Shown here: positions 5,816 through 27,819 of the stretch, one piece after another
How positions within the stretch are numbered: position 1 is the stretch's first letter
How the letters are laid out: each line of letters begins with the position of its first letter
Source of the DNA: Gemmatimonadota bacterium
GTDB lineage: Bacteria > Gemmatimonadota > Gemmatimonadetes > Longimicrobiales > Gaopeijiaceae
Length of the DNA stretch: 41,308 bases
Direction: 5' to 3'
Assembly: GCA_030618065.1 (NCBI GenBank)
Contig: JAUXEE010000001.1
Location: forward strand, 1 to 41,308
Position numbers and translations under genes: made by a program
The notes under the pieces: model-generated
Told to the model about the DNA's origin: nothing
Seen by the model: only the letters and a program-made list of their open reading frames with translations
Databases searched by the model: none

Positions 5816-7087
5816 CTAAACCATCCTGAACCCCTCGTAGTGGTCCCTCAACGCCTCCTTGAGCACCTCCTCAAAGGCTAGGAGTTCGAAGGAGAGTTGG
5901 TCGGCCAGAGATTGGGCGAACCGGGTCCGGTGGAAGCAGCGGGCGAAAACCCTGGGTTCGACCGACCGGCCGCGAAGAAGCATGGCTGCGCGGAAGTTCA
6001 CCACCTCTTCCTTCGCCGCGAGCAGATATACTGGTTCGACTTCGGCCTGCCGGAGGAGTTCCTCGACTTCCGCCCACGTCCCCGGATCCTCCAGATCACC
6101 ATCCACGGTCGAATAGGTGAGAGCGTCCAGAGGGACATCAGCTTCGAATTGTCGGACCTTCCGGGCAGCATCCGGGTCCACGATTACGACCCTCTCCAGC
6201 TCATTCGCCGCCGATACGCGAAGCAACTCCAGGATGGTTTCAGAGAACCGGCTGAAGCCCCCGATGACCAAGACATCCAGCTGGCCGGTATCCTGGAAAT
6301 GGGGGTACAGATGCTCCTCGAATAGGTGGAGGGCTGCAATGCGATCGGTGTTGAAAATAAGAGGCGGGCTGTTCGGTTCCTTTTGATCCTTGATGATCCG
6401 GTTCACGGGCCGGAGGAGAGTGAGGTCAGCCACGTGCACGGCAATGGGGAGATCCGGAACCCGCTCCCGAGCCCCCCACGCCAACTCCAGGTTCGCCATG
6501 TCGTCATTGGAGAGGACTACCATCCGATCGGCTCGATGGAGACAGAGAGCGCCAAGGGTGCCAGGGCGGCGGATGTCGCCTCGAATGAGTTCCGTTCTCC
6601 CATGGTCCAGGAGCTCCGAATCCGTGGCCAGGCTTTCTCCCGAGTCCACCAGGGCAACCGTCCGATCCGGATCGATGGACCGGATAGCGTCCAGGTAGGC
6701 GAGGGCGACCCGTCCCGATCCTGCCAAAACCAGGTGGTCCTTCAGAGCCCGGCGCTGGAGCCAGTCAGGGCGGACCAACCGGAGGAGCGCCTCCACCACG
6801 GCCGTGGTCGTGATGAGCGGGGCCAGGAAGTAGGCGATCCAGAGAGCTGCCCGACCCAGAAAGGGACCTCCCACAGGAGACCCCAGATCCATCCCGCCGA
6901 ACACGAAGAGCCCGCCCGAATAGTAGAGCCAGGCCAAGAATTGCTGATCCTGGGGGTCGGAAATCCCCGTGGTCCTGACACCCGCGAGGAAGGCTCCCAC
7001 CGCCAGGAAGAAGACGAGCACGATTCCCAGGATCCTGAGCTGATTGATCCGACTTCCCCGGCGTGGGACCCGATGTTCCGGACTCAA
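5816..7087 (-). CDS. 2-TM channel-like membrane protein with two RCK/TrkA_N NAD-binding-type domains
   Basis: TM1 is ILGIVLVFFLAVGAFLAGV, followed by the re-entrant-like segment WLYYSGGLFVFGGMDLG and TM2 AALWIAYFLAPLITTTAVV. Two Rossmann GxGxxA/G motifs follow (LVLAGSGRVALAY and LVIGGFSRFSETI). The TTG start overlaps the upstream stop (TTGA). Confidence 0.7.
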   Translation of the reverse strand: MSPEHRVPRRGSRINQLRILGIVLVFFLAVGAFLAGVRTTGISDPQDQQFLAWLYYSGGLFVFGGMDLGSPVGGPFLGRAALWIAYFLAPLITTTAVVEALLRLVRPDWLQRRALKDHLVLAGSGRVALAYLDAIRSIDPDRTVALVDSGESLATDSELLDHGRTELIRGDIRRPGTLGALCLHRADRMVVLSNDDMANLELAWGARERVPDLPIAVHVADLTLLRPVNRIIKDQKEPNSPPLIFNTDRIAALHLFEEHLYPHFQDTGQLDVLVIGGFSRFSETILELLRVSAANELERVVIVDPDAARKVRQFEADVPLDALTYSTVDGDLEDPGTWAEVEELLRQAEVEPVYLLAAKEEVVNFRAAMLLRGRSVEPRVFARCFHRTRFAQSLADQLSFELLAFEEVLKEALRDHYEGFRMV

Positions 7088-8002: not shown

Positions 8003-10594
8003 TTACCCAATGGTTGCCAGAAGGCGATCAGCGAGTTCTTGATCCACGCGGTGGCTTTCTTTCATCCGTTCCAAGGCACTCCGGATCATCGCCGCTTGTG
8101 CCGAGGGCATCCGGTTCACGGCATCGGCGCTCAGCGGCCACCAGCCCACTTCCTGGAAATGGTCCGGCGCCTCGAAGAGGTCCGGGGCCTCGTCGGAATC
8201 GGGACTCACCAGGAATGCACGACTCTCAACCCAGGCGTGATCGGTCTGCCTGGGATCATAGACATAGCCCCCCCCGATGGCATCTGCCGAGGGAGGATCC
8301 TGCCACCCGGCCTCACCTCTCAGGACTCTCTGCAATCCAGCCTCGGCCTCCTCCCCCGGAAGGAGGAAGCCCTTGGGAAGCTCGAGGGAGGGAGAGTCCT
8401 CCACCGAGCCCAGGAGGACCTCGAGCCCTCGTGTCACGCTGCTCTCCCGGAGCACCACCGCCGCCACGGAGAGGTTGGCCCCCCACAACCCCAGGAGCCC
8501 CCGACCCGCGATCCCCGTTCTTCCTCGTGGGTTCAGAGGACGGCCCTGGTCGTCTCGGAACTTGGCCTCACGAGACCCCAAGATTCCAGCCATCCCCTCC
8601 AACTCTTCCGGATCTGCCCACCCACCCTCGGTCTTCGTGCGGTCCTGTGCGAGCACCAGGGGATCGACGTGGTAGGGGGGAGAGTACTCCTCAGGCTCCA
8701 GCATCCACGGCACTTCGTCGATGGAGATCCGCTGTCTGGGCGGGTAGGATGCGGGCCGTTCCGCCCGAATTTTCAGGTGGAAATCATCGGAAACCAGATC
8801 CAGGAGGAGAGCCTCCACGCTGAAGAGGGCGAACATGAGTTGCACTTCGTGGCACTCCCCACGTCCCCGCCGCTTATCGAAGCTGAGGGAGTGGCTGGCG
8901 TACCTGAGCATGGCCACCCTGTACACCAGCCAGTCGTCGTCCTCCTTCAATTCAAAGCAGGCTTTCCGGATCCTCCTCACCGCTCCCAGCATCTTCCGGA
9001 ACCGAAGATCCCATTTAGCGAATCTGAGGTTGTCGGGAAGCTCATCCACGGTCCCTGGGATCCGTTGGCTGAGGAGGTAGTCACTGAACTTTTGAAAACG
9101 GGGGAGATCCTCGAATTCAAAAGCCTTGCTCATGACAAACTTCACATCGTTTTCAAGCTTCGCGAAGTCCAGCTCCACCGGATAGGAACCCGTGTGGGTC
9201 CAGTCGATGAACCAGACATTGTCCCCTTCGTCGCAGATCACATTGGCAAAGTTCAGGTCTCCATGCTGAAGGCAGATCTCAGACTCCAAGGAATCCTCGT
9301 TCCGCGTGGCCAACCGAAACAGTGCCACCAGCTGGTCGAGGTCCACCGAGTTGGGATCTCCGCCGAATTCCTCGATGTACCGTAGGATGTGCTCCCCGTT
9401 CATGCGGAGATATTCCTGCTGCCGCTCCACATGCAGGCCGAAGCTGCGGTAAGGGACAAGGGGGGCCCGTTCCCTGGTGTTCCCGTAGAGCTTCTTAGAG
9501 ACCAGGTCCAGGGTCTTATCCAGAAGCTCGAAGAAACGGGCCACGGATGCCTCGTCCTCGGCTTCCTCGAAATGATCCTGAAGAGTCGTGGGCCGTCCCT
9601 CCATAGCGGCCAGGTCCATCCCCACTCCAAGGGAGTCCCCCTCGGTGACGGGGTACCCGAATGTGGGGACGTGCTTGCCGAAGAAATCCTTCACCTGGTG
9701 GTAGCCGTCCAGCTCCCGCCGCATTTGGCCAAAAACGTCGATCTTTACCACTAAGGGCTCGGTTCGGGCCTCACCCTTCCACCCGTCGGCGATGAAGAGA
9801 AGGCTGCCGCTGTACCCGCCAGCCAAGGGGTGAAGGTAGGTCCGGCTCCAATTCATGCAGATGAGTTGGATGATCCGGGTGGCCTCGTCCGAGAGCCGGT
9901 CCCTAGCCTCCGGGGGATCGATTCTGCAAGGCGTCGCCGCCGGATGCATGAGGGAATCCAACTCGAACCCCACCCACCGAGCCGCTTCCGATAGGTCCAG
10001 GAGCACGTGGACTCCCGAACGTGGGAGATTATGTCGGAGGGTCGCGAAATGGGCTTCCTGGGTGGAACTTCCAACCAGGTGGGGGCAGACGGCGACCTGA
10101 GAGAATCCAAGTACATTGCGGAGGAAGGTGGCAAGGATCTGGACCCGTTTCTCGGTGTGGCAACCCAGGACCAGGAAGGAGAGGGGGGCCTCCCCGGACT
10201 CGACCTGACCTGGCTCAAAACCGGAGACGTCTGCGATGGCCTCCACCAGCGCCCGCCATGCGATCCTGTCGGGAGTGCAGGCCACGACCCGTGCCTTCTC
10301 GGCAATCTCCTCAAGCGGCTCGACCCACTCGGCCATGACCGCTTCCAGCTCTGGGGGCTCTTCTTCTTCCCCGATGGCAACGGCCAGGTCTTGGAGAAGG
10401 ACCAGCTTTGGCCCTTCGGGGCCCGCATCCGCCACCGAGCGGAGAAAGGAGGGCAGTGGGCCTTTACCAAAGGCGCGTCCGGCCCCCATGAGTCGCCCGA
10501 TCTCCCGGGCCCCCAGGTTCATCTGTATTCCCAGGAACTGTTTCTCGGGGCTCAAGATCCCCCGGGTGAGTCCGTCTCCTATTACGATCTGCAT
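8003..10594 (-). CDS. 863-aa multidomain protein: unassigned N-terminal alpha/beta region, APH-like (aminoglycoside/choline kinase fold) kinase domain, and a C-terminal NUDT9-homology (ADP-ribose pyrophosphatase-like) Nudix domain
   Basis: The kinase catalytic loop is LQHGDLNFANV (residues 443-452, nt 9239-9268), followed by FIDW. The NUDT9-like part contains GRPLNPRGRTGIAGRGLLGLWGANLSVAAVVLR (human NUDT9 has [33 protein letters not shown]) and GYVYDPRQTDHAWVESRAF (NUDT9 has GYVDDPRNTDNAWMETEAV). The Nudix box is GFLLPGEEAEAGLQRVLRGEAG. An AGGAAG Shine-Dalgarno sits 4 nt before the ATG. Confidence 0.8.
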   Translation of the reverse strand: MQIVIGDGLTRGILSPEKQFLGIQMNLGAREIGRLMGAGRAFGKGPLPSFLRSVADAGPEGPKLVLLQDLAVAIGEEEEPPELEAVMAEWVEPLEEIAEKARVVACTPDRIAWRALVEAIADVSGFEPGQVESGEAPLSFLVLGCHTEKRVQILATFLRNVLGFSQVAVCPHLVGSSTQEAHFATLRHNLPRSGVHVLLDLSEAARWVGFELDSLMHPAATPCRIDPPEARDRLSDEATRIIQLICMNWSRTYLHPLAGGYSGSLLFIADGWKGEARTEPLVVKIDVFGQMRRELDGYHQVKDFFGKHVPTFGYPVTEGDSLGVGMDLAAMEGRPTTLQDHFEEAEDEASVARFFELLDKTLDLVSKKLYGNTRERAPLVPYRSFGLHVERQQEYLRMNGEHILRYIEEFGGDPNSVDLDQLVALFRLATRNEDSLESEICLQHGDLNFANVICDEGDNVWFIDWTHTGSYPVELDFAKLENDVKFVMSKAFEFEDLPRFQKFSDYLLSQRIPGTVDELPDNLRFAKWDLRFRKMLGAVRRIRKACFELKEDDDWLVYRVAMLRYASHSLSFDKRRGRGECHEVQLMFALFSVEALLLDLVSDDFHLKIRAERPASYPPRQRISIDEVPWMLEPEEYSPPYHVDPLVLAQDRTKTEGGWADPEELEGMAGILGSREAKFRDDQGRPLNPRGRTGIAGRGLLGLWGANLSVAAVVLRESSVTRGLEVLLGSVEDSPSLELPKGFLLPGEEAEAGLQRVLRGEAGWQDPPSADAIGGGYVYDPRQTDHAWVESRAFLVSPDSDEAPDLFEAPDHFQEVGWWPLSADAVNRMPSAQAAMIRSALERMKESHRVDQELADRLLATIG

Positions 10595-10602
10595 TTGGCT
10601 TC

Positions 10603-11931
10603 CTAAAGAAGAACCCCTTCCATGACCAACTCAGCCATTCTCTCGGTCTTCTCCGACGACACTTTCTTCAGCACATCTCTAAACTCCTCGTACTCCGTCT
10701 TCAGCCGCTCGAACTCCCGGGCCGGGAGGAGGAATACGTCGGAGTACGTGAGAGCATGAACCGACGCGGTCCGGCGCTCTCCGAGAAGGAGGGAAAGGTC
10801 ACCGAAGTAGTCTCCAGGACCCAACGTGCCATGACTTTCGCCCTCGGGACCGGAGGTGATCTCTAGCGTTCCCCGGCTCACGAAATAGATCCCGTTTCCA
10901 GGCTCACCCTCTCGGGCAACGATGCTTCCCGGCACGTGGACCTGTGGCTCGAGGGACATGAGGAGGGCATTCCTGAGAGCCGGCCCCGTGTGTCGGAAAA
11001 GGGGCACCTGGTCCATGAGCTCCCGTGTGAGATGAAAGAGCACCTCCAGCCGGATGGACTCGGGAAGATCCTTCAGGAGAGCCGGAGCACTGATCCCCCG
11101 GTAACGATCCCAGATGTAGTCGTAGTAGTTCTGGATCTGCTCGGTGAGATCCTGCGGCAGGTCCCGGCCCCGGAGGTATTGGTTCACTCCCTCTACCCGG
11201 TTCCAGAAAGCGGCTTTGGACGAGTCGATGCTGCTGACCAGGGAGGCGACGCTCCCGATGATGAGGGCATACATGGAGGCCCCCACCACCATCACCACGA
11301 TGGCGTACACGTATTCGATCGTTCCAGTGGGGACGATATCCCCATACCCCACCGTCGTGGTGGTCACAAAACTCCAATAGATGGAGCGCAGGTACTGCTG
11401 GCCGATTCCCAGGTCGGTTATGCCGGCCTGGGCAGCCCAGGAATCAGCGGACAAACCTTCCATGACCGCGATTGCGAACCACCCGCAGGCCACCCAGTGG
11501 ATGAGAAGAAACACAACGACCAGGAGACGGGAGATGCGCAGGTACCCCGCATTGGTAGTTCTGGACCGTTGCCACCTGCGGAAGATGACCTGGAGACGGA
11601 TCACACGACCAAGACGAAGGAGCCTCAGGAGGAGGACGACGGGGAGACCTCCCAGAGCCAGGCCAGCCCAGGGCAGAAGAAGAACATCAAAGGGAAGGGT
11701 GGAGATCAGGTCCCAGGGGAGCATGCCCCTTCGGTACCGGCTGGAGATTCGACTCGGTTCACGAACCTCAGAGCCATACTCCCTGAAGGTCGTTCTGAAG
11801 TTGAGCCGAATATCCAGGAAGAACACCAGATCCAGGGCGTACACCAGGAGGCTGCCCCATAGGCCTACCTCCCTCACGAAGGCCAGTTGGAAGGGGACAA
11901 GCAGCCCGGTGACCACCACCAGAACGGCCAC
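10603..11931 (-). CDS. Voltage-sensor-type, cyclic-nucleotide-binding-domain potassium channel (SthK/KAT1-like 6-TM + C-linker + CNBD)
   Basis: The selectivity filter is TTTVGYGD and the S4 segment is LLLRLLRLGRVIRLQVIFRR. A C-linker is followed by a CNBD with phosphate-binding cassette FGDLSLLLGERRTASV. The listed start is a GTG, but conserved N-terminal sequence continues upstream of it (see findings), so the 5' end is uncertain. Confidence 0.9.
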   Translation of the reverse strand: MAVLVVVTGLLVPFQLAFVREVGLWGSLLVYALDLVFFLDIRLNFRTTFREYGSEVREPSRISSRYRRGMLPWDLISTLPFDVLLLPWAGLALGGLPVVLLLRLLRLGRVIRLQVIFRRWQRSRTTNAGYLRISRLLVVVFLLIHWVACGWFAIAVMEGLSADSWAAQAGITDLGIGQQYLRSIYWSFVTTTTVGYGDIVPTGTIEYVYAIVVMVVGASMYALIIGSVASLVSSIDSSKAAFWNRVEGVNQYLRGRDLPQDLTEQIQNYYDYIWDRYRGISAPALLKDLPESIRLEVLFHLTRELMDQVPLFRHTGPALRNALLMSLEPQVHVPGSIVAREGEPGNGIYFVSRGTLEITSGPEGESHGTLGPGDYFGDLSLLLGERRTASVHALTYSDVFLLPAREFERLKTEYEEFRDVLKKVSSEKTERMAELVMEGVLL

Positions 11932-12023: not shown

Positions 12024-12356
12024 TCAGAAGCCCTCCAGCGCCTCGGCCTCGGTAGAGAACACCGAAAAGATGGTGCTGAAGCCGGAGATCTCGAAGACTT
12101 CCTGAACGGTGTCGTTGAGTCCGAACATCCTCAACTGTCCACCCACGCCCTTGAGCTTCTTGGCCGTGGCCAGGAGAATCCTGAGGCCGGCACTGCTGAT
12201 GTAGTTCAACTTTTCAAAATCCACCACGATCCGGACTTGGCCCCCATCGGCCAGGGCGTCGAAATGGGCATGGGCGTCCGGGGCGGTGTTGGTGTCCAGA
12301 TTCCCTTCCAGCTGGACGATGGTCACCTCTCCTGCGCTGCGATCATGGATTTCCAT
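12024..12356 (-). CDS. Single-domain STAS protein, RsbV/SpoIIAA-like anti-sigma-factor antagonist
   Basis: The product is MEIHDRSAGEVTIVQLEGNLDTNTAPDAHAHFDALADGGQVRIVVDFEKLNYISSAGLRILL..., with a phosphorylatable Ser in the ISSAGL motif. A GGAGGA sits 5 nt before the ATG at 12356. The track ORF starts at an upstream GTG at 12383. Confidence 0.85.
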   Translation of the reverse strand: MEIHDRSAGEVTIVQLEGNLDTNTAPDAHAHFDALADGGQVRIVVDFEKLNYISSAGLRILLATAKKLKGVGGQLRMFGLNDTVQEVFEISGFSTIFSVFSTEAEALEGF

Positions 12357-12414
12357 AACTGTCCTCCGCTCGTCGGTTGTCACGCAAATGTCTTCTGGGG
12401 CAGAGTCCCGCCCG

Positions 12415-14106
12415 CTAGCTCTCGATGTACTTCACCACGGTCACGACGTTTTCGTTGATCCGTCTATGGTAGTCGACTTCATCCATAATCTTTTCCACCA
12501 AATGAATCCCCAGGCCTCCCACTTCCCTCTCCTCCAGCGATTCGGAGGTGTCCGGATTCACGCTCCCAAAGGGGTTGAACGGATGGCCATCGTCACGGAT
12601 GGTCGCAGAAATCCTCTTCTCGCCCAACTCGATATGAACGTGGATCTCATGTTCGGTCTCGTCTTCGTATGCGTACGAGACCACGTTGTTCAGAAGGTCG
12701 TCCAGAGCCAGATTCATGGCCCGCATGGCGGGGACCGGGAGCTGGTTCCGCTGGGAGAACTCCTCGAAGGCCTCGACGGCCCTCCCAATCTCCTGAACCT
12801 GGTTCTTCAGGACCAGATCCAAGCGCCGCTGGTCTGCGTCTCCCGTTGGGTCACCAAAATAGTGGACGGCCAGGACGGTAACGTCATCGGCCTGATCGGC
12901 CTCGGCCTGAAATCGCCAGACGTCGTTGGCCGAGGCTTTCACCATGTCCTCCACCGTGACGAAGTCGGTTGACTCCAGGACCGTCACGAGGCGGTCTTCC
13001 TCGTACAGCTCGCCCTCCGGGTCCATGGCTTCCGTCACCCCGTCCGTGTACAGGAAGGCTTTGTCGCCACACCCCAGCTCCTCTTCGTCCTCCCCGTACG
13101 CCATTCCCTCCACGGCCCCCACCACGGGCCCGTGCCGCTTGTCCAACCGAACCAGGGTCCCGTCGGCCCGCTTCAGGTAGGGTGGATTATGGCCTGCGTT
13201 GCAGTACTTGAAATATCCCGTCTGAAGGTTCAGAACGGCCAGCCAGAGCGTCACGAACATGGACGAGTCGTTTTTGAAGGCCAACTCGTCGTTCACGTGG
13301 GTCATGATGCTGGCGGGGGAGAGGTCGTTGGTCGCCCTGGACTTGATGAGGGTTTTGGTGACGGCCATGAAGAGTGCGGCGGGAACACCCTTTCCTGAAA
13401 CGTCGCCCACACAGAAGAGGAACTGGTCATCGTCCACCAGAAAGAAGTCGTAGAAGTCCCCGCCCACCTCGCGGGCCGGTTCCAAGGTGGCGAAGACGTC
13501 GAAATCCGTCCGATGGGGGAAGGCCGGGAAGTCCAGCGGGAGCATGCTCAGCTGGATCTCCCTGCCGATGTTCAGCTCTCCCTCCATGCGCTCCTTTACC
13601 GAGGTAGTGCGCCGGAGATTGTCCAAGGACTCCTGGAGTTCGAGGTTCTTGACCTCTAGCTCCTCGGCCTTGGCCTGTATCTCGGCCGTCAACTCGTCCT
13701 TGCTCTTGCTCGAAAGGACCGCTCGGACGGCAGAGAGTTGGTCCTGTCTGGGGAGGCTCTCCATGGGGAGCCTGATGATGGCCGTGAGGGTGGGATCCCC
13801 CTCGGCACCATTGTCCTGCTCGACCGAAGAGCAGAACCGCTCCACGAGCCCGGGGATCTCGGGGGAGTACTTTCCCTGAAACCGGAAGGCGAGGCGGGAA
13901 CCGATTCGCTCGTCGTCGACCCTGATCTCCAGGGAGGGTGAGGTGTTGTGACCCAAGAGGTCCCGGCCCACCATGGAGACCATGGTGGCCAGCCGGGTGG
14001 CCAGAAGTTCCTGCTGGGTAAGGGACAGGACTGCCGACCGGACTTTTCGGCGAGCCTCCAAAACCTCGTGAAGGTTCCCGATCCTCAGGGTGCCCAGGGA
14101 CGTCAT
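12415..14106 (-). CDS. Fused RsbU-like PP2C (SpoIIE-family) phosphatase and RsbW-like HATPase_c_2 serine kinase, with a degenerate N-terminal partner-binding domain and a coiled coil
   Basis: The PP2C part reads GREIQLSMLP...AREVGGDFYDFF...CVGDVSGKGVPAALFMAVTKTLI...NAGHNPP...LYTDGVTEA. The C-terminal kinase part has N-box LDDLLNNVVSYA, G1 RDDGHPFNP and G2 GGLGIHLV. The start ATG overlaps the RsbX stop by 1 nt. Confidence 0.85.
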   Translation of the reverse strand: MTSLGTLRIGNLHEVLEARRKVRSAVLSLTQQELLATRLATMVSMVGRDLLGHNTSPSLEIRVDDERIGSRLAFRFQGKYSPEIPGLVERFCSSVEQDNGAEGDPTLTAIIRLPMESLPRQDQLSAVRAVLSSKSKDELTAEIQAKAEELEVKNLELQESLDNLRRTTSVKERMEGELNIGREIQLSMLPLDFPAFPHRTDFDVFATLEPAREVGGDFYDFFLVDDDQFLFCVGDVSGKGVPAALFMAVTKTLIKSRATNDLSPASIMTHVNDELAFKNDSSMFVTLWLAVLNLQTGYFKYCNAGHNPPYLKRADGTLVRLDKRHGPVVGAVEGMAYGEDEEELGCGDKAFLYTDGVTEAMDPEGELYEEDRLVTVLESTDFVTVEDMVKASANDVWRFQAEADQADDVTVLAVHYFGDPTGDADQRRLDLVLKNQVQEIGRAVEAFEEFSQRNQLPVPAMRAMNLALDDLLNNVVSYAYEDETEHEIHVHIELGEKRISATIRDDGHPFNPFGSVNPDTSESLEEREVGGLGIHLVEKIMDEVDYHRRINENVVTVVKYIES

Positions 14107-14690
14107 CAGGCGTACCTCATGGCGATACAGGACACGTCGTCGAAGGTCCGCCCGAAACGCTTCACCATGGTCCGGACGATGGTCTGGACCGAGTGGATCC
14201 GCATCTCAGGGTATTCGGATACCGGCGTCCGGTCGCTGATCCCGTCGGAGTGCAGGATCAAGATGTCATCGTCGCGCAAGGTCATCCGGTCTACTCTGGG
14301 GACCCTCATCTGCTTCCCCAGGGTGCCCGGCACCGACGAAAAAGTGCGGGCCTCTTTCCCCAGAATCCGGAATACCGTATTCCCGACCCCCGAATAGGCG
14401 AGATTACCGGTCTTCTCGTCCACGATGCAGACGGCTCCGACGGCCCCGATGGTCTTCTTCAATCCTTCGTGAAGAAGGGTCATCGTCGTTCCGGGGTCGT
14501 CTGTCCAGCGCCCTTTCACCGCTGCCAGCCCGGCAGAGCAGGCTTCATGGGCATGGCGACCGTGGCCCAGGCCGTCAATGAGGATGGCACAGGTGAGCCC
14601 CCCCCTTTTCTCGATGAGGGTGCCATCTCCACTCAACCTCTCACCCACACACGGGCGGACGAACGCTGCGGCGTGGAGAGTGAGCTCCAT
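14106..14690 (-). CDS. rsbX: RsbX-like small PP2C feedback phosphatase
   Basis: The 194-aa product contains GDG...LIDGLGHGRHAHEAC...AVCIVD...LHSDGISD, which are SpoIIE/PP2C metal-binding motifs in a single-domain protein. It sits directly after RsbT, as in RsbRSTX modules. Confidence 0.8.
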   Translation of the reverse strand: MELTLHAAAFVRPCVGERLSGDGTLIEKRGGLTCAILIDGLGHGRHAHEACSAGLAAVKGRWTDDPGTTMTLLHEGLKKTIGAVGAVCIVDEKTGNLAYSGVGNTVFRILGKEARTFSSVPGTLGKQMRVPRVDRMTLRDDDILILHSDGISDRTPVSEYPEMRIHSVQTIVRTMVKRFGRTFDDVSCIAMRYA

Positions 14691-14693
14691 GGC

Positions 14694-15083
14694 CTATGCC
14701 CAGATCCGAGCCGTCACCGTGGTCCCGGAACCCGGCTCGGATCGGATACTGAACTCGTCCATCAGTCGGCGCACGCCGGGAAGGCCGAGGCCCAGCGTTC
14801 CGCTGGAGCTGAAGTGGTCTTCCAGCGCTTCCTTCACGTTCTCGATTCCGGGCCCCCGATCCGTGGCAACGACCTCCAAGCCCTCCCGACCGGACTCGGT
14901 CACCGTCCTGATGATCACCGCCCCCTTACCGCCGGCGTACTTGATGATGTTCCGGGCAAGCTCTGAGATCGCGGTGGACACCTTTTGCTGCTTCACCTGA
15001 TCGAATCCCAATTCGGCGGCCCGGCGGTTTCCCTCCAGGACGGCCCGGGCGACGTCCCGATCTTCAGTAATCGGAATTCTCAT
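14694..15083 (-). CDS. rsbT: RsbT-like stressosome serine kinase (HATPase)
   Basis: The product is MRIPITEDRDVARAV...ISELARNIIKYAGGKG...ATDRGPGIEN...GTLGLGLPGVRRLMDEF. The ATG at 15083 forms an ATGA overlap with the RsbS stop. Confidence 0.85.
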   Translation of the reverse strand: MRIPITEDRDVARAVLEGNRRAAELGFDQVKQQKVSTAISELARNIIKYAGGKGAVIIRTVTESGREGLEVVATDRGPGIENVKEALEDHFSSSGTLGLGLPGVRRLMDEFSIRSEPGSGTTVTARIWA

Positions 15084-15484
15084 CTGTCCGAGTCCCAAGA
15101 GTCACCCGCATCGACGTCCCGCAGTTCATCGAGCTTCTCGAAGGCATCGTCCAGGGTCAAGACCCCGTTCAGCCCATCCACGTCCGCATCGAGATCCACA
15201 AGGGCTGATACCATCCCCGGCCTCATGCCCGCCAAAACGGATCGGGCCCCCAGTAGGGAAGCCATGTTCATGGTGTCTCTGAGATCGGCCAGGTCTCCTG
15301 GATCGAGGACCCCCAAGGCGGAAAGGTCGATAATGACCCCCGTGGCCTGGGATCGCTGGACGGCCCCCAGGAGGTCGTGTCGGAACTGGGCAAGGACAGC
15401 GGGCTCGAAGTCCACCTGGACCGAGGCCACAACGGTCCCCTGAGACACCCGCAAGGGAACCCGGGGAACCGAATCACCTGACAT
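15080..15484 (-). CDS. rsbS: RsbS-like single STAS stressosome scaffold protein
   Basis: The 134-aa product contains VPRVPLRVSQGTVVASVQVDF...GVIIDLSALGVLDPGDLADLRDTMNMASLLGARSVLAGMRPGMVSALVDL. This is collinear with B. subtilis RsbS ([49 protein letters not shown]). Confidence 0.85.
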   Translation of the reverse strand: MSGDSVPRVPLRVSQGTVVASVQVDFEPAVLAQFRHDLLGAVQRSQATGVIIDLSALGVLDPGDLADLRDTMNMASLLGARSVLAGMRPGMVSALVDLDADVDGLNGVLTLDDAFEKLDELRDVDAGDSWDSDR

Positions 15485-16397
15485 CGCCGTCCGTGGCCGG
15501 TCGGATTTCCAGCCCCTGTCTACGGAAGGCTCCAGCCAGAGCGTCTTGCATGGTGGCGGTGGTTTTCATGCGTCCTACATCGATCCCGAGTTCCACGATG
15601 GTCTGGGCAATGGCGGGGGACACCCCGGAGATGGTGGCCTCACATCCCATGAGCCGGGTTGCCCGGGTAATGTTGATGAGGTAATTAGCCACCGCCGTGT
15701 CCACCACCCCCACGCCGCTGATGTCCAGGATAAAGATTCGGGCCCGGGTTTCGGCAATCTTCGTCAGACCGGCGTTCATGATGTCCTGTGCCCGATGGGA
15801 ATCGATGATCCCGACGATGGGGAGGAGAAGGACACCCTCCCAGATCTCCGTCACGGGAGTGGACATCTCCATGAGAGATTTGGCCTGGGCTGTAAGCGCT
15901 TCCTCGGTCACGGCGTTGTAGGTATGCACGACCACCGCGGTTTCCAGGTGCATCAGTTTGGTGATAATGGATGAGATTTGGACCCACTCTTCGGATGGGA
16001 CCCCCAGTTGACCGGCCACTTCACCAATCACGATCAAGAAGTGATTGATTCCGGCGAAATATGCACTTAGAGGGAGTCCGATTCGGGCATGCACCTCCCC
16101 GATTTCCACCCGACGCCGGACGTAGTTTTCATCGATCTTCCCCGATAAAAAGACCTCCCAAGCCCTCTCCTGGAGACCCCGGGCCCGTTCCATGACTGCC
16201 GGATCGGAGAAGAAGAGTTCAAACTCCGGGTAGGTCTTTAGCCAGCCGTACCACTGGCTGATCATCTCATCCAGATGGTCCCCCACCCGCTCTCCGAAGG
16301 TCCGGAGAACCTCCAGCTCTTCCTGCTTCAGACCGTAGAGGGCCAGCAGACCCTCCGGGGTCATGGTGTCCATTCCTGAAGCATGGGATCCGGTCAT
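15474..16397 (-). CDS. rsbR: RsbR-like stressosome sensor: N-terminal globin-coupled-sensor/protoglobin-like domain plus C-terminal STAS
   Basis: The N-terminal part reads ISQWYGWLKTYPEFELFFSDPAVMERARGLQERAWEVFLSGKIDENYVRRRVEIGEVHARIGLPLSAYF, a protoglobin signature with a candidate proximal His. The C-terminal part reads LLPIVGIIDSHRAQ...ILDISGVGVVDTAVANYL, an RsbR-type STAS with Ser/Thr at both known phospho-sites. The start forms an ATGA overlap with the upstream gene. Confidence 0.8.
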   Translation of the reverse strand: MTGSHASGMDTMTPEGLLALYGLKQEELEVLRTFGERVGDHLDEMISQWYGWLKTYPEFELFFSDPAVMERARGLQERAWEVFLSGKIDENYVRRRVEIGEVHARIGLPLSAYFAGINHFLIVIGEVAGQLGVPSEEWVQISSIITKLMHLETAVVVHTYNAVTEEALTAQAKSLMEMSTPVTEIWEGVLLLPIVGIIDSHRAQDIMNAGLTKIAETRARIFILDISGVGVVDTAVANYLINITRATRLMGCEATISGVSPAIAQTIVELGIDVGRMKTTATMQDALAGAFRRQGLEIRPATDGDVR

Positions 16398-18322
16398 TCT
16401 CCTTCTCCTCCATTCTCGGTGCTTTCAGATTCGACGTACTTGCCTTCCAGCATCCTCAGGGCCAGTTCGAAGCCTGCCTGTAAGGTCCCTTCGGCGTGGA
16501 CGTTCTCCAACTCCAGCCCCGCGTCCACAAGACCTCCCGCAGCGGCAGCCTGCATTCCCGTGATGATGACCCGACAACCCAGCAGTTGGGCGGCCCGAGC
16601 GGTCCCTTGCAACCCCTCGGCCACTTCGGGCGAAATATCCGGGACTCCGGTGAGGTCCAGGATCGCCACCCTTGCACCCCATTCGTGGATACGAGCCAGG
16701 AGTCGTTCCCGGGTGGAAGCGATCCTGTCAGCGTCCATTTCACCCACTAGAGGTACCATGACGGCGTCATCCCGCAGGGGAATGACGGGGGTGGAAAGAG
16801 CATCGATGGCACGGGCCTGCCGGTCCACCAATTCCTGGATGGAGCGGCGCATCTGATCGAAACTCGACGCCAGTTCCCCGATCTCGTCACCGCGGGTGAC
16901 GTCGACCTCGATATCCAGACGGCCTTGGGCCAGATGGGCGGCGCTAGCGGACAGGACCTTGATGGGTCGTGTCAGACTTCCGGCGAACCAAAAGGCCAGG
17001 ACCCCCAGGAGCGGAATCAAAATCGCCAGCCAAATCATCATTCTCACCCTGAGCTCGGCGACGGCCTGGAGGGCTTCTGCGGCGTCGATCTCGCTCATCA
17101 GCACCCAGTCCAGCTCCGGGAGGTTCAGAGGCCTGAAGCTGGAGAAGACCCTCACTCCCCTGTAATCCTCGAAGGAGGCCGTGCCCGATTCCCCCCTTTG
17201 CGCCAGTTCGGTACCCTCGGTTCGAATCTCCTGAAGTCCGATGGCGCTCTCCAACGACTCGATGGCCCGGATGGTGGGCTCGGGGACCCCGGCCTCCCGG
17301 ATCATGGCCGTGTACCCCTCCGGATCCTCCAGGAGGAAACGGGACTCGGTGCGGAGCCGGTGGTCGCCGCCCACCAGATAGGTCTCCCCCGTTTCCCCCA
17401 GTCCCATGGACGACCAGGCGCCCCCGCTAGTCATGATGTCGTTGATGCGGCCGATGGGGAGTTGGAAGATGAGGACGCCGACGGGCTCATTCCCGTCGAA
17501 GACCGGTGACGACACGAAGGAGGCTCGATCCGAGTAGGAAGGGATATAGGACTGGAAGTCCTCCACCCGGATGAAGTCCCTGGCCCCGGAGCCGACAGCC
17601 GCACGGAAAGCGTCGGCGATGTTCGCATCCCGATACGGGCCGTTCAGAAGGGAGGTCCCGAAGTCCACTTCCTTGAAGACCGAGTAGACGATGCGCCCCG
17701 ATTCCCGGTCTACCAAGAAGATATCGTAGTAGCCGAATCGCTCCAGATAGGACCGGAATATGGGATGGTACCGCCCGTGGGCCTGGTTGTAACCTGCCGC
17801 CTCCGGAGCACGGTCCTGCAAGTGCTTCGAACCCACTTCGTAGGGGTTCGAGCTGACGTAGAGACTCTGGAGGGCCCGTCCCGTCTCATCCTCGGGCCAG
17901 AATTCCGAGAGGTTTCGGGGCTCCAGGAGGTTGGCATTGAGGCGGGGGAGGAACTCGTCCTGGTAGTAGAGCCTGAGCTCCTGCTCGCCCTCGGATCGGT
18001 TCCAACCGGACCGGGAGAGATTCCGGGTCAATTCTTCCGCAGCCCCCGAGAACTCCCGAAGGGCCGAGGCGACGGTGGGGTCCTCGGAGAGGGTCACCAT
18101 CTGATCGACGATAAGCTGAAGGTAGTCTTCGATCCGGTCTCCCTTCAGCTCCCGGATCGACGTGAGTTGATCGAAAGCCTGCTCTTCGAGAGTGGTGACC
18201 CCCAGACCGTAGGACAGGGCCCCCATTGCCCCCATGGAGATGAAGGCCACAGCGGCCAGGACCGAAAGAACCCTGGCCCGGATCGAAACTCCTCGCTTTT
18301 CCACCGATGAAGCTCGAGTCAT
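16394..18322 (-). CDS. Membrane-bound RsbR paralogue: TM, dCache-like periplasmic sensor, TM, HAMP, RsbR-type STAS
   Basis: The N-terminal TM is VLSVLAAVAFISMGAMGAL. The Cache-type core is GYYDIFLVDRESGRIVYSVFKEVDFGTSLLNGPY. The second TM is MIWLAILIPLLGVLAFWFA. The HAMP segment is LTRPIKVLSASAAHLAQGRLDIEVDVTRGDEIGELASSFDQM. The STAS segment STPVIPLRDDAVMVPLVGEMDADR...ILDLTGVPDISPEVA...LLGCRVIITG is collinear with the STAS of the adjacent RsbR. Confidence 0.8.
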   Translation of the reverse strand: MTRASSVEKRGVSIRARVLSVLAAVAFISMGAMGALSYGLGVTTLEEQAFDQLTSIRELKGDRIEDYLQLIVDQMVTLSEDPTVASALREFSGAAEELTRNLSRSGWNRSEGEQELRLYYQDEFLPRLNANLLEPRNLSEFWPEDETGRALQSLYVSSNPYEVGSKHLQDRAPEAAGYNQAHGRYHPIFRSYLERFGYYDIFLVDRESGRIVYSVFKEVDFGTSLLNGPYRDANIADAFRAAVGSGARDFIRVEDFQSYIPSYSDRASFVSSPVFDGNEPVGVLIFQLPIGRINDIMTSGGAWSSMGLGETGETYLVGGDHRLRTESRFLLEDPEGYTAMIREAGVPEPTIRAIESLESAIGLQEIRTEGTELAQRGESGTASFEDYRGVRVFSSFRPLNLPELDWVLMSEIDAAEALQAVAELRVRMMIWLAILIPLLGVLAFWFAGSLTRPIKVLSASAAHLAQGRLDIEVDVTRGDEIGELASSFDQMRRSIQELVDRQARAIDALSTPVIPLRDDAVMVPLVGEMDADRIASTRERLLARIHEWGARVAILDLTGVPDISPEVAEGLQGTARAAQLLGCRVIITGMQAAAAGGLVDAGLELENVHAEGTLQAGFELALRMLEGKYVESESTENGGEGE

Positions 18323-21714: not shown

Positions 21715-22971
21715 ATGCAAGCAGACCCCGTTTTCAATGGTTTGGACACCTTCTGGATTCTCTTTGCGGCCTTCCTGGTATTTTTCATGCAGGCCGGCTT
21801 CGGAATGCTGGAGGCAGGTCTGGTTCGCACAAAAAATGCCGCGAATGTCCTCACCAAGAACGTCCTGGACTTCTCCTTCGCGGCCCTCGGCTACTTCGCC
21901 TTCGGTTACGCCATCATGTATGGGACCGAAGGCCTCCTGGTGGGCACCGAGGGCTGGTTCCTTTCTGGCGTAACGTCTCCGGTGGACGGCGTACCGGTGG
22001 AGGCTTTCTGGCTATTCCAGGTCGTTTTTGCCGGGGCTGCAGCCACAATCGTGGCCGGGGCAGTTGCCGAGCGGATGAAATTCGTCGCCTATCTGATCTA
22101 TTCATTCATCATCAGCGCCTTCATTTACCCGGTCGTGGGCCATTGGGTATGGGGTGGTGGCTGGCTGAGCAGTTTGGGATTCCACGACTTCGCCGGCTCC
22201 ACGGTGGTCCATGCCGTCGGGGGAATCAGCGCACTGGTAGGCGCCTGGCTCCTTGGCCCCCGCATTGGACGCTTCAACGAGAATGGCACACCCAACGTCA
22301 TCGCCGGCCACAGTCTCCCTCTGGCTACCATCGGAGTCTTCATCCTCTGGTTTGGATGGTACGGCTTCAACGCCGGGTCCACTCTAGGATTTGGAGAACC
22401 AGATGTGGTGGCGCGAATAGCCGCCAACACCACTCTGGCACCGGCAACCGGGGCGCTGGCTGGCCTCATGACTGCTTGGGTGAAATGGGGTAAGCCCGAC
22501 CTGACCCTGGCCCTGAACGGGGCCCTGGCCGGCCTGGTGGGAATCACCGCTCCCTGTGCAGTGGTAGGTATGGGATCTTCAATCTGGATCGGCTTGGTCG
22601 GTGGGGTCCTGGTGGTCTTCGGGATCGACTGGATGAACCGAATCCGCATCGATGACCCGGTTGGCGCTTTCCCCGTCCATGGTCTTGTGGGCATCTGGGG
22701 CACGCTTGCCGTGGGGATCTTCGGCCAGGCCTCCCTGGGGGCTCCCGCCGACGGCCTCTTTTACGGGGGTGGATTCGGACAGCTGGGCATCCAAACCCTT
22801 GGCCTGGCAGCCTGTCTGACATTCACAGCCGTGTCCATGTGGATCGTGTTTAAGGGCATCGAGGCGGTGGTGGGTTTGCGGGTCTCTCGGGAAACGGAGT
22901 TGAGGGGCCTAGATCTCGACGAACACGGTCTGGAGTCCTATAGCGGCTTCCAGATCTTCACCACGGAATAG
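21715..22971 (+). CDS. amtB: Ammonium transporter (Amt family)
   Basis: The product contains FWILFAAFLVFFMQAGFGMLEAGLVRTKNAANVLTKN...DFAGSTVVHAVGG...GWYGFNAGS...AFPVHGLVGIWGTL, which are canonical Amt motifs. A GAGGA sits 5 nt before the ATG. Confidence 0.95.
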   Translation: MQADPVFNGLDTFWILFAAFLVFFMQAGFGMLEAGLVRTKNAANVLTKNVLDFSFAALGYFAFGYAIMYGTEGLLVGTEGWFLSGVTSPVDGVPVEAFWLFQVVFAGAAATIVAGAVAERMKFVAYLIYSFIISAFIYPVVGHWVWGGGWLSSLGFHDFAGSTVVHAVGGISALVGAWLLGPRIGRFNENGTPNVIAGHSLPLATIGVFILWFGWYGFNAGSTLGFGEPDVVARIAANTTLAPATGALAGLMTAWVKWGKPDLTLALNGALAGLVGITAPCAVVGMGSSIWIGLVGGVLVVFGIDWMNRIRIDDPVGAFPVHGLVGIWGTLAVGIFGQASLGAPADGLFYGGGFGQLGIQTLGLAACLTFTAVSMWIVFKGIEAVVGLRVSRETELRGLDLDEHGLESYSGFQIFTTE

Positions 22972-22987
22972 CGGAGAGGATCAACTA

Positions 22988-23320
22988 ATGAAGATGGTCG
23001 TCGCCGTACTCCGCCCCGAGCAGCTTCCCACAGTAAAGGATGCGCTGTTCGAAGCGGATTTTCAACATCTCACCGCGACCTCGGTAATGGGAACGGCTCC
23101 CAAAACGGAACAGCAGATGTTTCGTGGCGTGCGCCGGGAGGTATCCCTTTTCAGGCGGGTCCGAATCGAGGTTGCCGTTACGGACGCCCTGGTCGAACGG
23201 GCCATCGAGGCCATTACCCGGGGAGCCAAAGAGACCGGGGGATGGGGTCACATCTTCGTCACCGAGATTAGCGAGGTGGTGAAGATCTGGACCGGCGAAC
23301 GCGGTCCTCGAGCGTTGTAG
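22988..23320 (+). CDS. glnK: PII-family nitrogen signalling protein (divergent T-loop)
   Basis: MKMVVAVLRPEQLPTVKDALFEADFQHLTATSVMG...RVRIEVAVTDALVERAIEAI...HIFVTEISEVVKIWTGE is collinear with E. coli GlnB. The gene lies 16 nt after amtB and 8 nt before glnA. Confidence 0.85.
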   Translation: MKMVVAVLRPEQLPTVKDALFEADFQHLTATSVMGTAPKTEQQMFRGVRREVSLFRRVRIEVAVTDALVERAIEAITRGAKETGGWGHIFVTEISEVVKIWTGERGPRAL

Positions 23321-23328
23321 GGGGTGTT

Positions 23329-24765
23329 ATGAGCAAAGAGCCCAGTAGCACCCGGAAGATCCTCCAAAGGATCAAAGACGAGGAGATCCGTTTCCTGGAT
23401 CTGAAGTTCGTCGACCTCTTTGGACAACTCCAGCATCTCACCATGCCGACGGAGGTGGTGGATGAAGGCACATTCCGGAGAGGGCTGAACTTCGACGGCT
23501 CGTCGGTCCGGGGATTCCAGAAGATCAGTGAAAGCGACATGATCCTGCTTCCCGATCCTTCCTCCGTCTTTCTGGATCCGTTCTTTGACGACAAAGCTCT
23601 TTCGGTCTTCTGCGATATCATCGATCCCAACGGATTCCAGCCCTATAGCAGGGACCCCCGGGGGGTGGCGCGGAAGGCACAAAGGCTCATTCAATCCCTG
23701 GGGATCGCGGATGACGCATTCTTCGGACCCGAGATCGAGTTCTTCATCTTCGATGACGTCCGCTTCGGCCAGGAAACCCAACAGGGTTACTACTTCCTGA
23801 ACAGTGACGCGGCCTTCTGGAGCACGGGGAAGGAGGGAGGGAAACCCAACCTCGGCCACCAAGCGGCCCAGAAGCACGCGTACTTTGCGGCTCCCCCGGT
23901 GGATCAGTACAACAACCTTCGGTCGAAGATTTCCAACGTACTGAAGGACACCGGGATCCAGACCGAACTTCACCACCATGAGGTTGGGGCTGCCGGCCAA
24001 TGCGAGATCGGGTTCCAGTTCGGTCCCCTTCTCCATCAGGCTGATGCAGCCATCAAGTACAAATTCGTGGTGAGGAATGTGGTGGCCCGGTACGGAAAGA
24101 GCGTCACCTTCATGCCCAAGCCCCTCCTTCATGAGAATGGCTCGGGGATGCACGTGAACATGAGCCTTTCCCAAGGCGGGAAGAACCTCTTCTTCTCCTC
24201 CGGGGGCTATGGGGACCTGAGTGAGTTGGCGCTGAACTACATCGGGGGCATCCTGGCTCATGCCCCTGCTCTGTGCGCGATCTGCTCTCCCACCACCAAC
24301 TCGTACCGGAGGCTCGTTCCGGGCTATGAAGCCCCCATGAACCTCTTGTATTCCATGCGGAATCGGAGTGCCTGCGTGCGGGTGCCCCTTTCTTCGGGGA
24401 ATCCCAAAACCACGCGGATCGAGTTCCGGACACCTGACGGGGCGGGGAATCCCTATCTGACCTTCGCGGCCATCCTCATGGCTGGCCTGGACGGAATCAG
24501 GAAGGGGATCACTCCGCCGGAACCGGTGGATCAGGACCTTTATGCCTGGGCTGAGACTGAAGCCGGGCGGTCCATTGGCAGAACCCCGGCCTCGTTGGAG
24601 GAGGCCATCGACGCCCTCGAAGGAGACCACGAGTTCCTGAAAGAGGGCGGAGTGTTTACGCAGGACCTGATCGAAACCTGGATTGACCTGAAACGGCGGG
24701 ATGAAATCGACTACATTCGCCTCCGGCCGCACCCGGGTGAATTCTCCCTTTATTACAACGTGTAG
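23329..24765 (+). CDS. glnA: Glutamine synthetase type I
   Basis: The product contains IRFLDLKFVDLFGQLQHLTMP, FDGSSVRGFQ, FGPEIEFFIFD, GSGMHVNMSL, NSYRRLVPGYEAP and RIEFRTPD, which are all GSI signatures. Confidence 0.95.
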   Translation: MSKEPSSTRKILQRIKDEEIRFLDLKFVDLFGQLQHLTMPTEVVDEGTFRRGLNFDGSSVRGFQKISESDMILLPDPSSVFLDPFFDDKALSVFCDIIDPNGFQPYSRDPRGVARKAQRLIQSLGIADDAFFGPEIEFFIFDDVRFGQETQQGYYFLNSDAAFWSTGKEGGKPNLGHQAAQKHAYFAAPPVDQYNNLRSKISNVLKDTGIQTELHHHEVGAAGQCEIGFQFGPLLHQADAAIKYKFVVRNVVARYGKSVTFMPKPLLHENGSGMHVNMSLSQGGKNLFFSSGGYGDLSELALNYIGGILAHAPALCAICSPTTNSYRRLVPGYEAPMNLLYSMRNRSACVRVPLSSGNPKTTRIEFRTPDGAGNPYLTFAAILMAGLDGIRKGITPPEPVDQDLYAWAETEAGRSIGRTPASLEEAIDALEGDHEFLKEGGVFTQDLIETWIDLKRRDEIDYIRLRPHPGEFSLYYNV

Positions 24766-24799
24766 GCGCACGATTCGAGGCTAGAGAGGACGAAGGGCC

Positions 24800-27803: not shown

Positions 27804-27819
27804 GAGTCGGGAACCTGAC

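Follow-up and report, generated by a model that had tools for sequence, protein, structure and literature searches.

Vertebrate TRPM2 is the textbook example of an ADP-ribose (ADPR) hydrolase domain turned ligand sensor, and the first 41,308 nucleotides of contig JAUXEE010000001.1 from a Gemmatimonadota bacterium (assembly GCA_030618065.1; the whole stretch is hereafter called the window) raise the question of whether bacteria have made a comparable conversion. The gene concerned encodes an 863 aa protein (hereafter the target), the C-terminal part of which resembles the ADPR pyrophosphatase NUDT9 and carries a degenerate Nudix box. An initial annotation, made from the sequence alone, proposed that this part is a sensor of ADPR or a related nucleotide rather than a hydrolase, and that it is functionally tied to the adjacent channel genes as a split, prokaryotic analogue of TRPM2. 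The explanation favoured here, which we consider reasonably probable, is that the disabled NUDT9-homology domain (NUDT9H) binds an adenine-diphosphate nucleotide within a three-domain kinase, which would be the distal output of an Rsb-like operon and be paired with a phosphatase of the inositol monophosphatase (IMPase) family. A widespread bacterial clade would then have made the TRPM2-like conversion from enzyme to sensor independently, a finding of interest to both the TRPM2/Nudix and the partner-switching fields, with the mechanism put forward as a proposal.

The NUDT9-homology domain and its degenerate Nudix box

The C-terminus of the target is a NUDT9-homology domain, and the match lies far beyond chance. 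In single-sequence phmmer searches the last ~250 aa match human NUDT9 (PDB 1q33) with E=2.6e-14 and human TRPM2, through its NUDT9H domain, with E=2.4e-11. A profile of the domain built from 22 homologues (the A3 profile) matches NUDT9 in the PDB with E=1.5e-24, spanning residues 13-276 of 292, the choanoflagellate TRPM2 chanzyme with 4e-20 and the Nematostella and human TRPM2 proteins with 1.4e-18. The top ten matches are all NUDT9 or TRPM2, with the next Nudix protein at 6.5e-5, and the significant similarity over both cap and core, above that to other Nudix proteins, places the domain in the NUDT9 subfamily. The homology claimed in the initial annotation is upheld by these alignments against NUDT9 and the human and Nematostella TRPM2 domains, and none of the canonical glutamates is restored by them. 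Structural modelling leads to the same assignment, as Foldseek, run on an AlphaFold2 (AF2) model of residues 606-863 (mean predicted local distance difference test, pLDDT, of 71; 80-94 in the core), returned NUDT9 (1qvj, E=1.3e-9) as the first match and the TRPM2 chanzymes next. The Nudix alpha/beta/alpha fold is thus present in the core of the target, the cap being poorly modelled. The translation also contains GRPLNPRGRTGIAGRGLLGLWGAN, a cap motif of the GRPxNPxGRTGxxGRG type. The NUDT9_N family (PF25969) is found in the precomputed annotation of all the listed homologues, including the 95%-identical P0001, while the local Pfam scan gave no report of it on the target.

The letters and coordinates of the Nudix box had been read correctly in the initial annotation, residues G742-G763 corresponding exactly to nt 8371-8306. 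In the profile alignment the R-V-L-R-G-E of the target sits on the R-E-F-G-E-E of NUDT9, confirming the replacement of the REF-EE signature, and HMMER pairs the target LQRVLRGE with the LKRILRQE of TRPM2. Residue V757 of the target is the equivalent of E230 in NUDT9, E1386 in choanoflagellate TRPM2 (srTRPM2) and I1405 in human TRPM2 (hsTRPM2). Residues were counted in 113 full-length homologues, termed the close family, and in a comparison set of 101 canonical NUDT9-like proteins. In the close family the Mg-coordinating Glu (NUDT9 E230) is replaced by V in 98 members, by I in 9 and by T in 3, and is never retained, whereas Glu occupies the E1386 position in 101/101 canonical proteins (0/113 in the close family). 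The second Glu position of the REUXEE box is variable and unconstrained across the 113 homologues. The box of the target deviates from the canonical GX5EX7REUXEEXGU, the three glutamates of which are kept in 101/101 canonical NUDT9-like representatives, and the acidic catalytic base of srTRPM2 (D1460; D or E in 92/101 canonical proteins) is replaced by His812. In the active choanoflagellate NUDT9-H domain, E1386 coordinates Mg2 and D1460 activates the water (PMC11479946). NUDT9 is inactive with RILGEE, with which it still binds ADPR, or with REFGKK, the same substitutions in nvTRPM2 lead to loss of catalysis with ADPR affinity kept, and the human TRPM2 domain, with RILRQE, binds ADPR without hydrolysing it (PMC6461439). 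The Mg-coordinating Glu has genuinely been lost from the target domain. The parallel with RILRQE drawn in the initial annotation holds for the change from Glu to an aliphatic residue; that RVLRGE and RILRQE also share the Arg and the final Glu is coincidental, since the consensus of the family is R-V-[LM]-x-x-E, with the middle two positions free.

Degeneration of the box characterises the whole family and goes together with the kinase fusion. When the A3 profile was searched against 1.84 billion cluster representatives, 2488 matches at E<=1e-3 were obtained, the best 150 of which were examined. Among these, the box is non-canonical in 25/25 kinase-fused NUDT9-like domains; it is fully eroded in some (QKLGSM, QTVQEA, NLLGEF), and its last Glu has become Lys in 11/25. 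R-E-[FL]-x-E-E is kept in 101 of the non-fused domains of the same 150, while a further 28 non-fused domains are non-canonical, being mostly short fragments of the same pattern or repeats in giant proteins. Midpoint rooting of the neighbour-joining tree was uninformative and an unrooted bipartition test was used instead, in which one bipartition holds all 28 kinase-fused domains together with four short or odd sequences. As a single bipartition gathers the kinase-fused domains, the fusion and the loss arose once, and the loss of the Glu in this bacterial clade of single origin is independent of that in vertebrate TRPM2. Among the matches of the same search, P0128, P0130, P0186, P0188, P0217, P0226 and P0227 are giant proteins of 2000-4000 aa with several tandem NUDT9-like domains, in which canonical and degenerate (RRLGxK) boxes are mixed within one polypeptide.

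The nucleotide pocket and its candidate ligand

Pocket residues were mapped through the alignment of the profile with PDB sequences and then counted in the close family and the canonical set. In the choanoflagellate NUDT9-H domain, the adenine lies sandwiched between W1264 and F1372, and the terminal ribose is held by D1330 (PMC11479946), while D1431 of human TRPM2 helps to stack the adenine and R1433 binds the alpha-phosphate (PMC6759353). Both sandwich residues are present in the target. W659 (sr W1264) is W in 113/113 members of the close family and 84/101 canonical proteins, and F743 (sr F1372) is F in 113/113, this position being mostly M in the canonical set. At D780 and R782 (hs D1431 and R1433), D is found in 111 and R in 112 of the 113 (92 and 96, respectively, of the 101 canonical proteins). 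The equivalent of hsTRPM2 Y1485 could not be reliably mapped, as the alignments to TRPM2 stop short of it. The pocket-lining W659, F743, R782, T784 and D785 are conserved across phyla, and the cap motif, in the form GRPLNPxGRTGxxGRG, is conserved in the family. The target domain combines loss of the Glu (V757) with retention of the nucleotide contacts (D780, R782, W659 and F743, each in 111-113/113), as in the TRPM2-type gating NUDT9-H domains. Judged by residue conservation, the target domain bears the hallmark of a ligand-binding pseudoenzyme, purifying selection acting on its nucleotide pocket while the metal-binding and catalytic residues have been released, and it may bind ADPR (or 2'-deoxy-ADPR) without hydrolysis. 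Pseudoenzyme domains are often scaffolds, and the loss of both the catalytic residues and the ribose-binding Asp would suit a domain without any ligand that acts as a structural or oligomerisation scaffold for the kinase. This is very unlikely, however, given that the invariance of these five residues and of the cap motif across phyla is hard to explain without a ligand.

Several observations weigh against a domain that binds ADPR itself and has lost all activity. The AF2 model of the cap is poor, with a pLDDT below 50 over ~60 residues. The terminal-ribose Asp (sr D1330) corresponds to A711 in the target, D being found in 0/113 members of the close family versus 100/101 canonical proteins, and because this residue has been lost the ligand may be a relative of ADPR rather than ADPR. 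A ligand whose far end differs from that of ADPR is suggested both by this loss and by the replacement of DDPRNTDNAW with YDxRQTDHAW. Acidic residues also persist in and around the box: the last Nudix-box Glu (E761) is E in 90 and D in 12 of the 113 (E or D in 102/113), the GX5E Glu (E748), the Nudix Arg (R756) and E790 are nearly invariant, and the position of the catalytic base, H812 in the target, is E or D in 81/113. Because several acidic residues persist, residual or altered hydrolysis is possible, and some Nudix enzymes with atypical boxes use altered active sites. The target domain could in that case still be a hydrolase with a rearranged site (E748, E761, E790 and residue 812) and another substrate or chemistry, making the protein a bifunctional kinase/pyrophosphatase, and the JGI pipelines do call the family 'ADP-ribose pyrophosphatase'. 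We nevertheless consider this unlikely: no member has the Mg-coordinating Glu, the Glu next to it is free to vary, erosion extends to the entire box in divergent fused members, with the Glu-to-Lys change already described, and equivalent substitutions abolish the activity of NUDT9 and nvTRPM2 (PMC6461439). The automatic database names, 'ADP-ribose pyrophosphatase' (JGI pipelines) or 'NUDIX domain-containing protein', derive from the Nudix match only, and the former label is probably wrong for this family.

The nucleotide-binding reading thus fits the conservation data best, and the sensor of the initial annotation agrees with them in its binding function (Glu in 0/113, adenine sandwich in 113/113), although ADPR itself as the ligand is not assured in view of A711. 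No NAD-consuming enzyme (ART, TIR, sirtuin or macro) that might serve as an ADPR source was found in the rest of the window.

Comparison with characterised proteins sets the domain apart from each of them. The best sequence and structure matches are NUDT9 and the invertebrate and choanoflagellate TRPM2 chanzymes, which are active ADPR pyrophosphatases. The target shares with this active type the GRPxNPxGRTGxxGRGxLGxWGxN cap motif, the WADP motif and the R-x-T-D-x-A-W motif, whereas it departs from this type in the REFxEE box, the terminal-ribose Asp and the catalytic-base Asp. With the vertebrate TRPM2 NUDT9-H it has in common the NUDT9 subfamily, a cap and core, the replacement of the Mg-binding Glu by an aliphatic residue, the equivalents of D1431 and R1433 and a presumed conversion from enzyme to nucleotide-binding module, while it differs in being fused to a kinase and a putative pseudo-isochorismatase domain rather than to a TRPM channel. 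Human TRPM2 has lost the ancestral adenine sandwich of Trp and Phe, both of which are kept in the target, and the ribose-binding Asp is replaced by Tyr in human TRPM2 and by Ala in the target. This pattern of loss, unlike that of TRPM2 (Mg-binding Glu gone, adenine sandwich kept, ribose Asp gone), provides a natural comparison for separating the residues needed for binding from those needed for hydrolysis. A bacterial precedent is NrtR, whose degenerate-box Nudix domain serves as an ADPR sensor instead of an enzyme (Foldseek match to 3gz8, E=3.5e-8), but it belongs to another Nudix subfamily, lacks the NUDT9_N cap and has a winged-helix DNA-binding output in place of the kinase. No helix-turn-helix domain was detected in the target by Pfam, and the likeness to NrtR is limited to the Nudix fold.

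The kinase, its N-terminal partner and the family

The target protein matches the Pfam families TCAD9 (1.5e-23), APH (2.6e-7) and NUDIX (5.6e-7). The intact small-molecule-kinase fold recognised in the initial annotation is borne out by its motifs, which read HGDLNFAN and IDW in the target. GGxSGS, VxK, RELxGY, HGDLNxxN and IDW show no variation in the family, the most divergent members included, nor in a paralogue. Within a 40-sequence alignment and the divergent members, K284, E294, H444-G-D446, N451 and D464 are also invariant, providing the Lys-Glu pair, the HxDxxxxN loop and the DFG-equivalent Asp. As these catalytic motifs are invariant, the kinase is probably active. The HGDLNxxN loop, the IDW metal-binding motif and the Lys-Glu pair are shared with APH/choline-kinase-like kinases and TCAD9; unlike those kinases, the target kinase has no close solved structure, the only PDB matches being marginal ones to APH(9) and RIO2 around the catalytic loop (E about 0.7), and it stands between two putative pseudoenzyme domains. 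Its substrate could also be a protein, such as the STAS partner, a point against the favoured explanation. A defence-system reading, prompted by the TCAD9 name, was dropped when the PADLOC models gave no match to the target; nor did they match the IMPase, TrkA_N or STAS proteins encoded beside it, and the neighbouring channel is matched via its cNMP domain only.

The N-terminal domain was overlooked in the initial annotation, as were the partner-switching genes upstream. AF2 models it as Rossmann-like (pLDDT 84), and the top Foldseek match, a weak one, is the isochorismatase-like hydrolase 3hb7 (E=0.085, TM-score 0.45-0.57). The target domain itself has no Pfam match and its profile found nothing significant among PDB sequences, while the homologous domains of P0228 (35.5 bits, cut-off 27), P0153 and the L003 paralogue are matched by PF00857 (Isochorismatase). 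These PF00857-matching relatives keep a first-strand motif of the ADSLTNDF type. At the G-x-x-T-x-x-C-V motif the target reads G-C-H-T-E-K-R-V; throughout the family and in the paralogue, R, K, H or I takes the place of the catalytic Cys, with the register assigned by eye. An apparently active kinase would thus be flanked by two pseudoenzymes from families of NAD metabolism, one nicotinamidase-like and the other ADPR-pyrophosphatase-like.

On the favoured explanation, the catalytically disabled NUDT9H would bind a diphosphate nucleotide that contains adenine, be it ADP-ribose or a close relative derived from NAD. The domain would serve as the ligand module of a three-domain signalling enzyme made up of a dead isochorismatase-like domain, an active APH/TCAD9 kinase and the dead NUDT9H, acting as an allosteric sensor or as a substrate holder for the kinase.

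More than 350 full-length homologues of ~840-880 aa were found among 5.8 billion proteins searched, and TCAD9/APH, NUDT9_N and NUDIX are common to all of them. The 65 genome matches to the target are all metagenome-assembled genomes (MAGs), the closest being from Gemmatimonadota with 74% identity. Further members come from Acidobacteriota, Planctomycetota, Gammaproteobacteria, Myxococcota, Acidimicrobiia, Bacteroidota and Verrucomicrobiota, so that the clade comprises more than 350 sequences from at least eight phyla, found in MAGs only. Literature searches on TCAD9, on NUDT9 and bacteria, and on pseudo-Nudix domains and partner switching found nothing on this family, and it is not described in the paper from which the TCAD domains originate (eLife 2020).

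In a paralogue at locus L003 (11615-13924; the same as in L019), the N-terminal and kinase domains are retained (26% identity, E=4e-28) and the place of the NUDT9H is taken by an apparently active DSP/PTP phosphatase with an intact HCxxGxxR motif (HCVGGLGRSG). In the Acidobacteriota MAG that carries it, the paralogue directly follows the target orthologue and the usual IMPase gene is absent; its DSP/PTP phosphatase may substitute for the IMPase. Another relative, P0125 (1014 aa), is a Rosetta-stone fusion in which an RsbW-like HATPase_c_2 domain is joined N-terminally to a TCAD9 kinase and a degenerate NUDT9H.

Operon context, channels and neighbouring genes

The target is one of the last genes of a long minus-strand operon that extends from 18322 to 5816 (Table 1). 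Its genes encode, in order, dCache-HAMP-STAS, protoglobin-STAS, small STAS, HATPase_c_2, SpoIIE, SpoIIE+HATPase_c_2 and STAS proteins, a cyclic nucleotide-gated (CNG) K+ channel, the target, the IMPase and a transmembrane (TM) protein with a TrkA_N domain.

Table 1. Positions of the target gene, its domains and key codons, and the other genes of the operon
Feature	Position	Strand	Evidence
Target gene, 863 aa: putative pseudo-isochorismatase, APH/TCAD9 kinase and degenerate NUDT9-homology domain	8003..10594	-	Open reading frame and translation
Putative N-terminal isochorismatase-like domain (residues 1-~235), catalytic Cys absent	9890..10594	-	AF2, Foldseek, Pfam on relatives
APH/TCAD9-type kinase domain (residues ~240-600), catalytic motifs intact	8795..9877	-	Pfam
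NUDT9-homology domain (residues ~612-863; NUDT9_N cap, then Nudix core)	8006..8761	-	phmmer, profile vs PDB, AF2 and Foldseek
W659 codon, equivalent to adenine-stacking W1264 of choanoflagellate TRPM2 NUDT9-H	8618..8620	-	Alignment; role from PMC11479946
F743 codon, equivalent to adenine-stacking F1372 of srTRPM2	8366..8368	-	Alignment; role from PMC11479946
Degenerate Nudix box G742-G763, GFLLPGE-EAEAGLQ-RVLRGE-AG	8306..8371	-	Translation
Partner-switching cascade, dCache-HAMP-STAS through SpoIIE+HATPase_c_2 (upstream part of operon)	12415..18322	-	Pfam
STAS (RsbV-like) protein	12024..12383	-	Pfam STAS 1.4e-18
Cyclic nucleotide-gated, voltage-sensor-type K+ channel	10603..11931	-	Pfam Ion_trans 5e-23, cNMP_binding 5e-19; TVGYGD filter
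Inositol-monophosphatase/CysQ-family phosphatase, overlaps/abuts target stop codon	7084..8010	-	Pfam Inositol_P 3e-22; DPIDGT, WDxxGG
Membrane protein, two TM helices, pore-like loop and TrkA_N/RCK; putative nucleotide-regulated channel	5816..7087	-	Pfam TrkA_N 6e-13

The same gene order recurs in L006-L008 and in other genomes. Neighbours were counted in 53 non-redundant loci with enough flanking sequence, and partner-switching genes in the 36 loci that reach 14 kb or more. In 42/53 loci the IMPase-family gene comes directly after the target, and in four more it is nearby; a STAS protein is encoded at most 1.6 kb upstream in 26/53 loci, and partner-switching genes occur in 28/36 loci. The operon resembles Rsb-type partner-switching systems and stressosomes in having sensor-STAS, RsbW-like, RsbU-like and RsbV-like genes upstream, with an RsbW-like fusion in one relative (P0125). 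It differs from them in that no sigma factor is encoded in it and the distal genes are those for the kinase-NUDT9H protein, a phosphatase and channels. The target enzyme would on this basis be the distal output of the Rsb-like operon, and with the IMPase-family phosphatase it would probably form a kinase/phosphatase pair acting on a small phosphorylated metabolite. If this is correct, an uncharacterised three-domain kinase can be defined as the output of a large, conserved partner-switching operon, and an operon without a sigma factor but with ion channels makes a new kind of Rsb-type output experimentally approachable.

The initial annotation correctly placed a K+ channel gene 8 nt from the target, the CNG channel gene ending 8 nt before the target start codon. 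Beyond the IMPase gene, the TrkA_N protein carries a conserved AWIYYAAGLFVFGGLDLG between its TM helices; this stretch, AW(I/L)YYA(A/G)GLFVFGG(L/M)DLG, resembles a pore helix and filter and is followed by an RCK Rossmann motif. From these motifs the protein resembles a P-loop channel of the 2-TM type, its filter being non-canonical (VFGGLD, not TVGYGD); no Pfam Ion_trans_2 match and no PDB match were found for it. It is encoded downstream in 14/42 loci. Since Gemmatimonadota and some other lineages carry the cNMP-gated channel and the RCK protein in the operon, ion flux is a plausible lineage-specific output.

A more direct coupling, in which an ADPR-bound dead NUDT9H docks on and gates the neighbouring K+ channel or channels as a split prokaryotic TRPM2, would draw on the short intergenic distance within one operon, the recurrence of channel adjacency in Gemmatimonadota, Acidimicrobiia and Planctomycetota, the second putative channel with an RCK domain two genes downstream, and the Glu-to-aliphatic change shared with vertebrate TRPM2. 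The channel is, however, directly upstream in just 18/53 loci, within 10 kb in seven more and not within 10 kb in 28/53, and the target is accompanied more constantly by the IMPase and partner-switching genes. The CNG channel has its own intact cNMP-binding domain (FGDL...RRTASV phosphate-binding cassette), and the MHR domains on which a NUDT9H could dock in a TRPM channel are absent, the channel being a separate protein. None of the best 150 of the 2488 representatives has the NUDT9H joined to a channel; its fusion partner is the kinase. With the channel missing at most loci and possessing its own cNMP domain, and with neither TRPM docking domains nor a channel fusion, the model is weak, and the split TRPM2 advanced in the initial annotation appears very improbable.

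A more novel reading, distinctly unlikely in our estimation, would assign these genes to a hitherto unrecognised bacterial signalling pathway based on an NAD/ADPR-derived nucleotide. The nicotinamidase-like domain and the NUDT9H, both dead, would read NAD-breakdown products and control the small-molecule kinase, which would write a phosphorylated nucleotide messenger that the IMPase-family phosphatase (DSP-type in the paralogues) would erase. A partner-switching cascade resembling a stressosome, and genomically linked to ammonium uptake and glutamine synthetase, would stand upstream of this messenger, which would set the activity of the RCK- and CNBD-type K+ channels. If true, this would amount to an independent bacterial invention of NUDT9H nucleotide sensing for the control of ion flux, as in vertebrate TRPM2.

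Three further features of the partner-switching genes in the window may be mentioned. At 14106-15098 on the minus strand, HATPase_c_2 (14694-15098) and SpoIIE (14106-14690) are encoded as two in-frame open reading frames split by TAG-GCC-ATG, while they form one gene of 351-368 aa in L006-L008; the split in the window may be natural, may mark a pseudogene or may stem from a sequencing error. The protoglobin-STAS protein (15474-16397, minus strand) joins a haem-based gas/redox sensor to an RsbR-like STAS domain and is a conserved member of the operon in both Gemmatimonadota and other phyla (L006-L008, L049, L052, L062). On the plus strand, 27682-31404 encodes a 1240 aa protein with SBP_bac_3, dCache, PAS, SpoIIE and HATPase_c_2 domains, a second fusion of a partner-switching input with a phosphatase and kinase.

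An Amt-(P-II)-GlnA-Band7/SPFH block is located at 21715-26092 on the plus strand, and such blocks are also found in L009, L019, L032, L049, L054, L056, L064 and L069. In several phyla the Amt-GlnA-Band7 block is found close to the target, its order and orientation varying (16/36 loci of at least 14 kb), and this proximity suggests a link of the system to ammonium assimilation. In L054 and L056, the Band7 gene ends 31-171 nt before the target.

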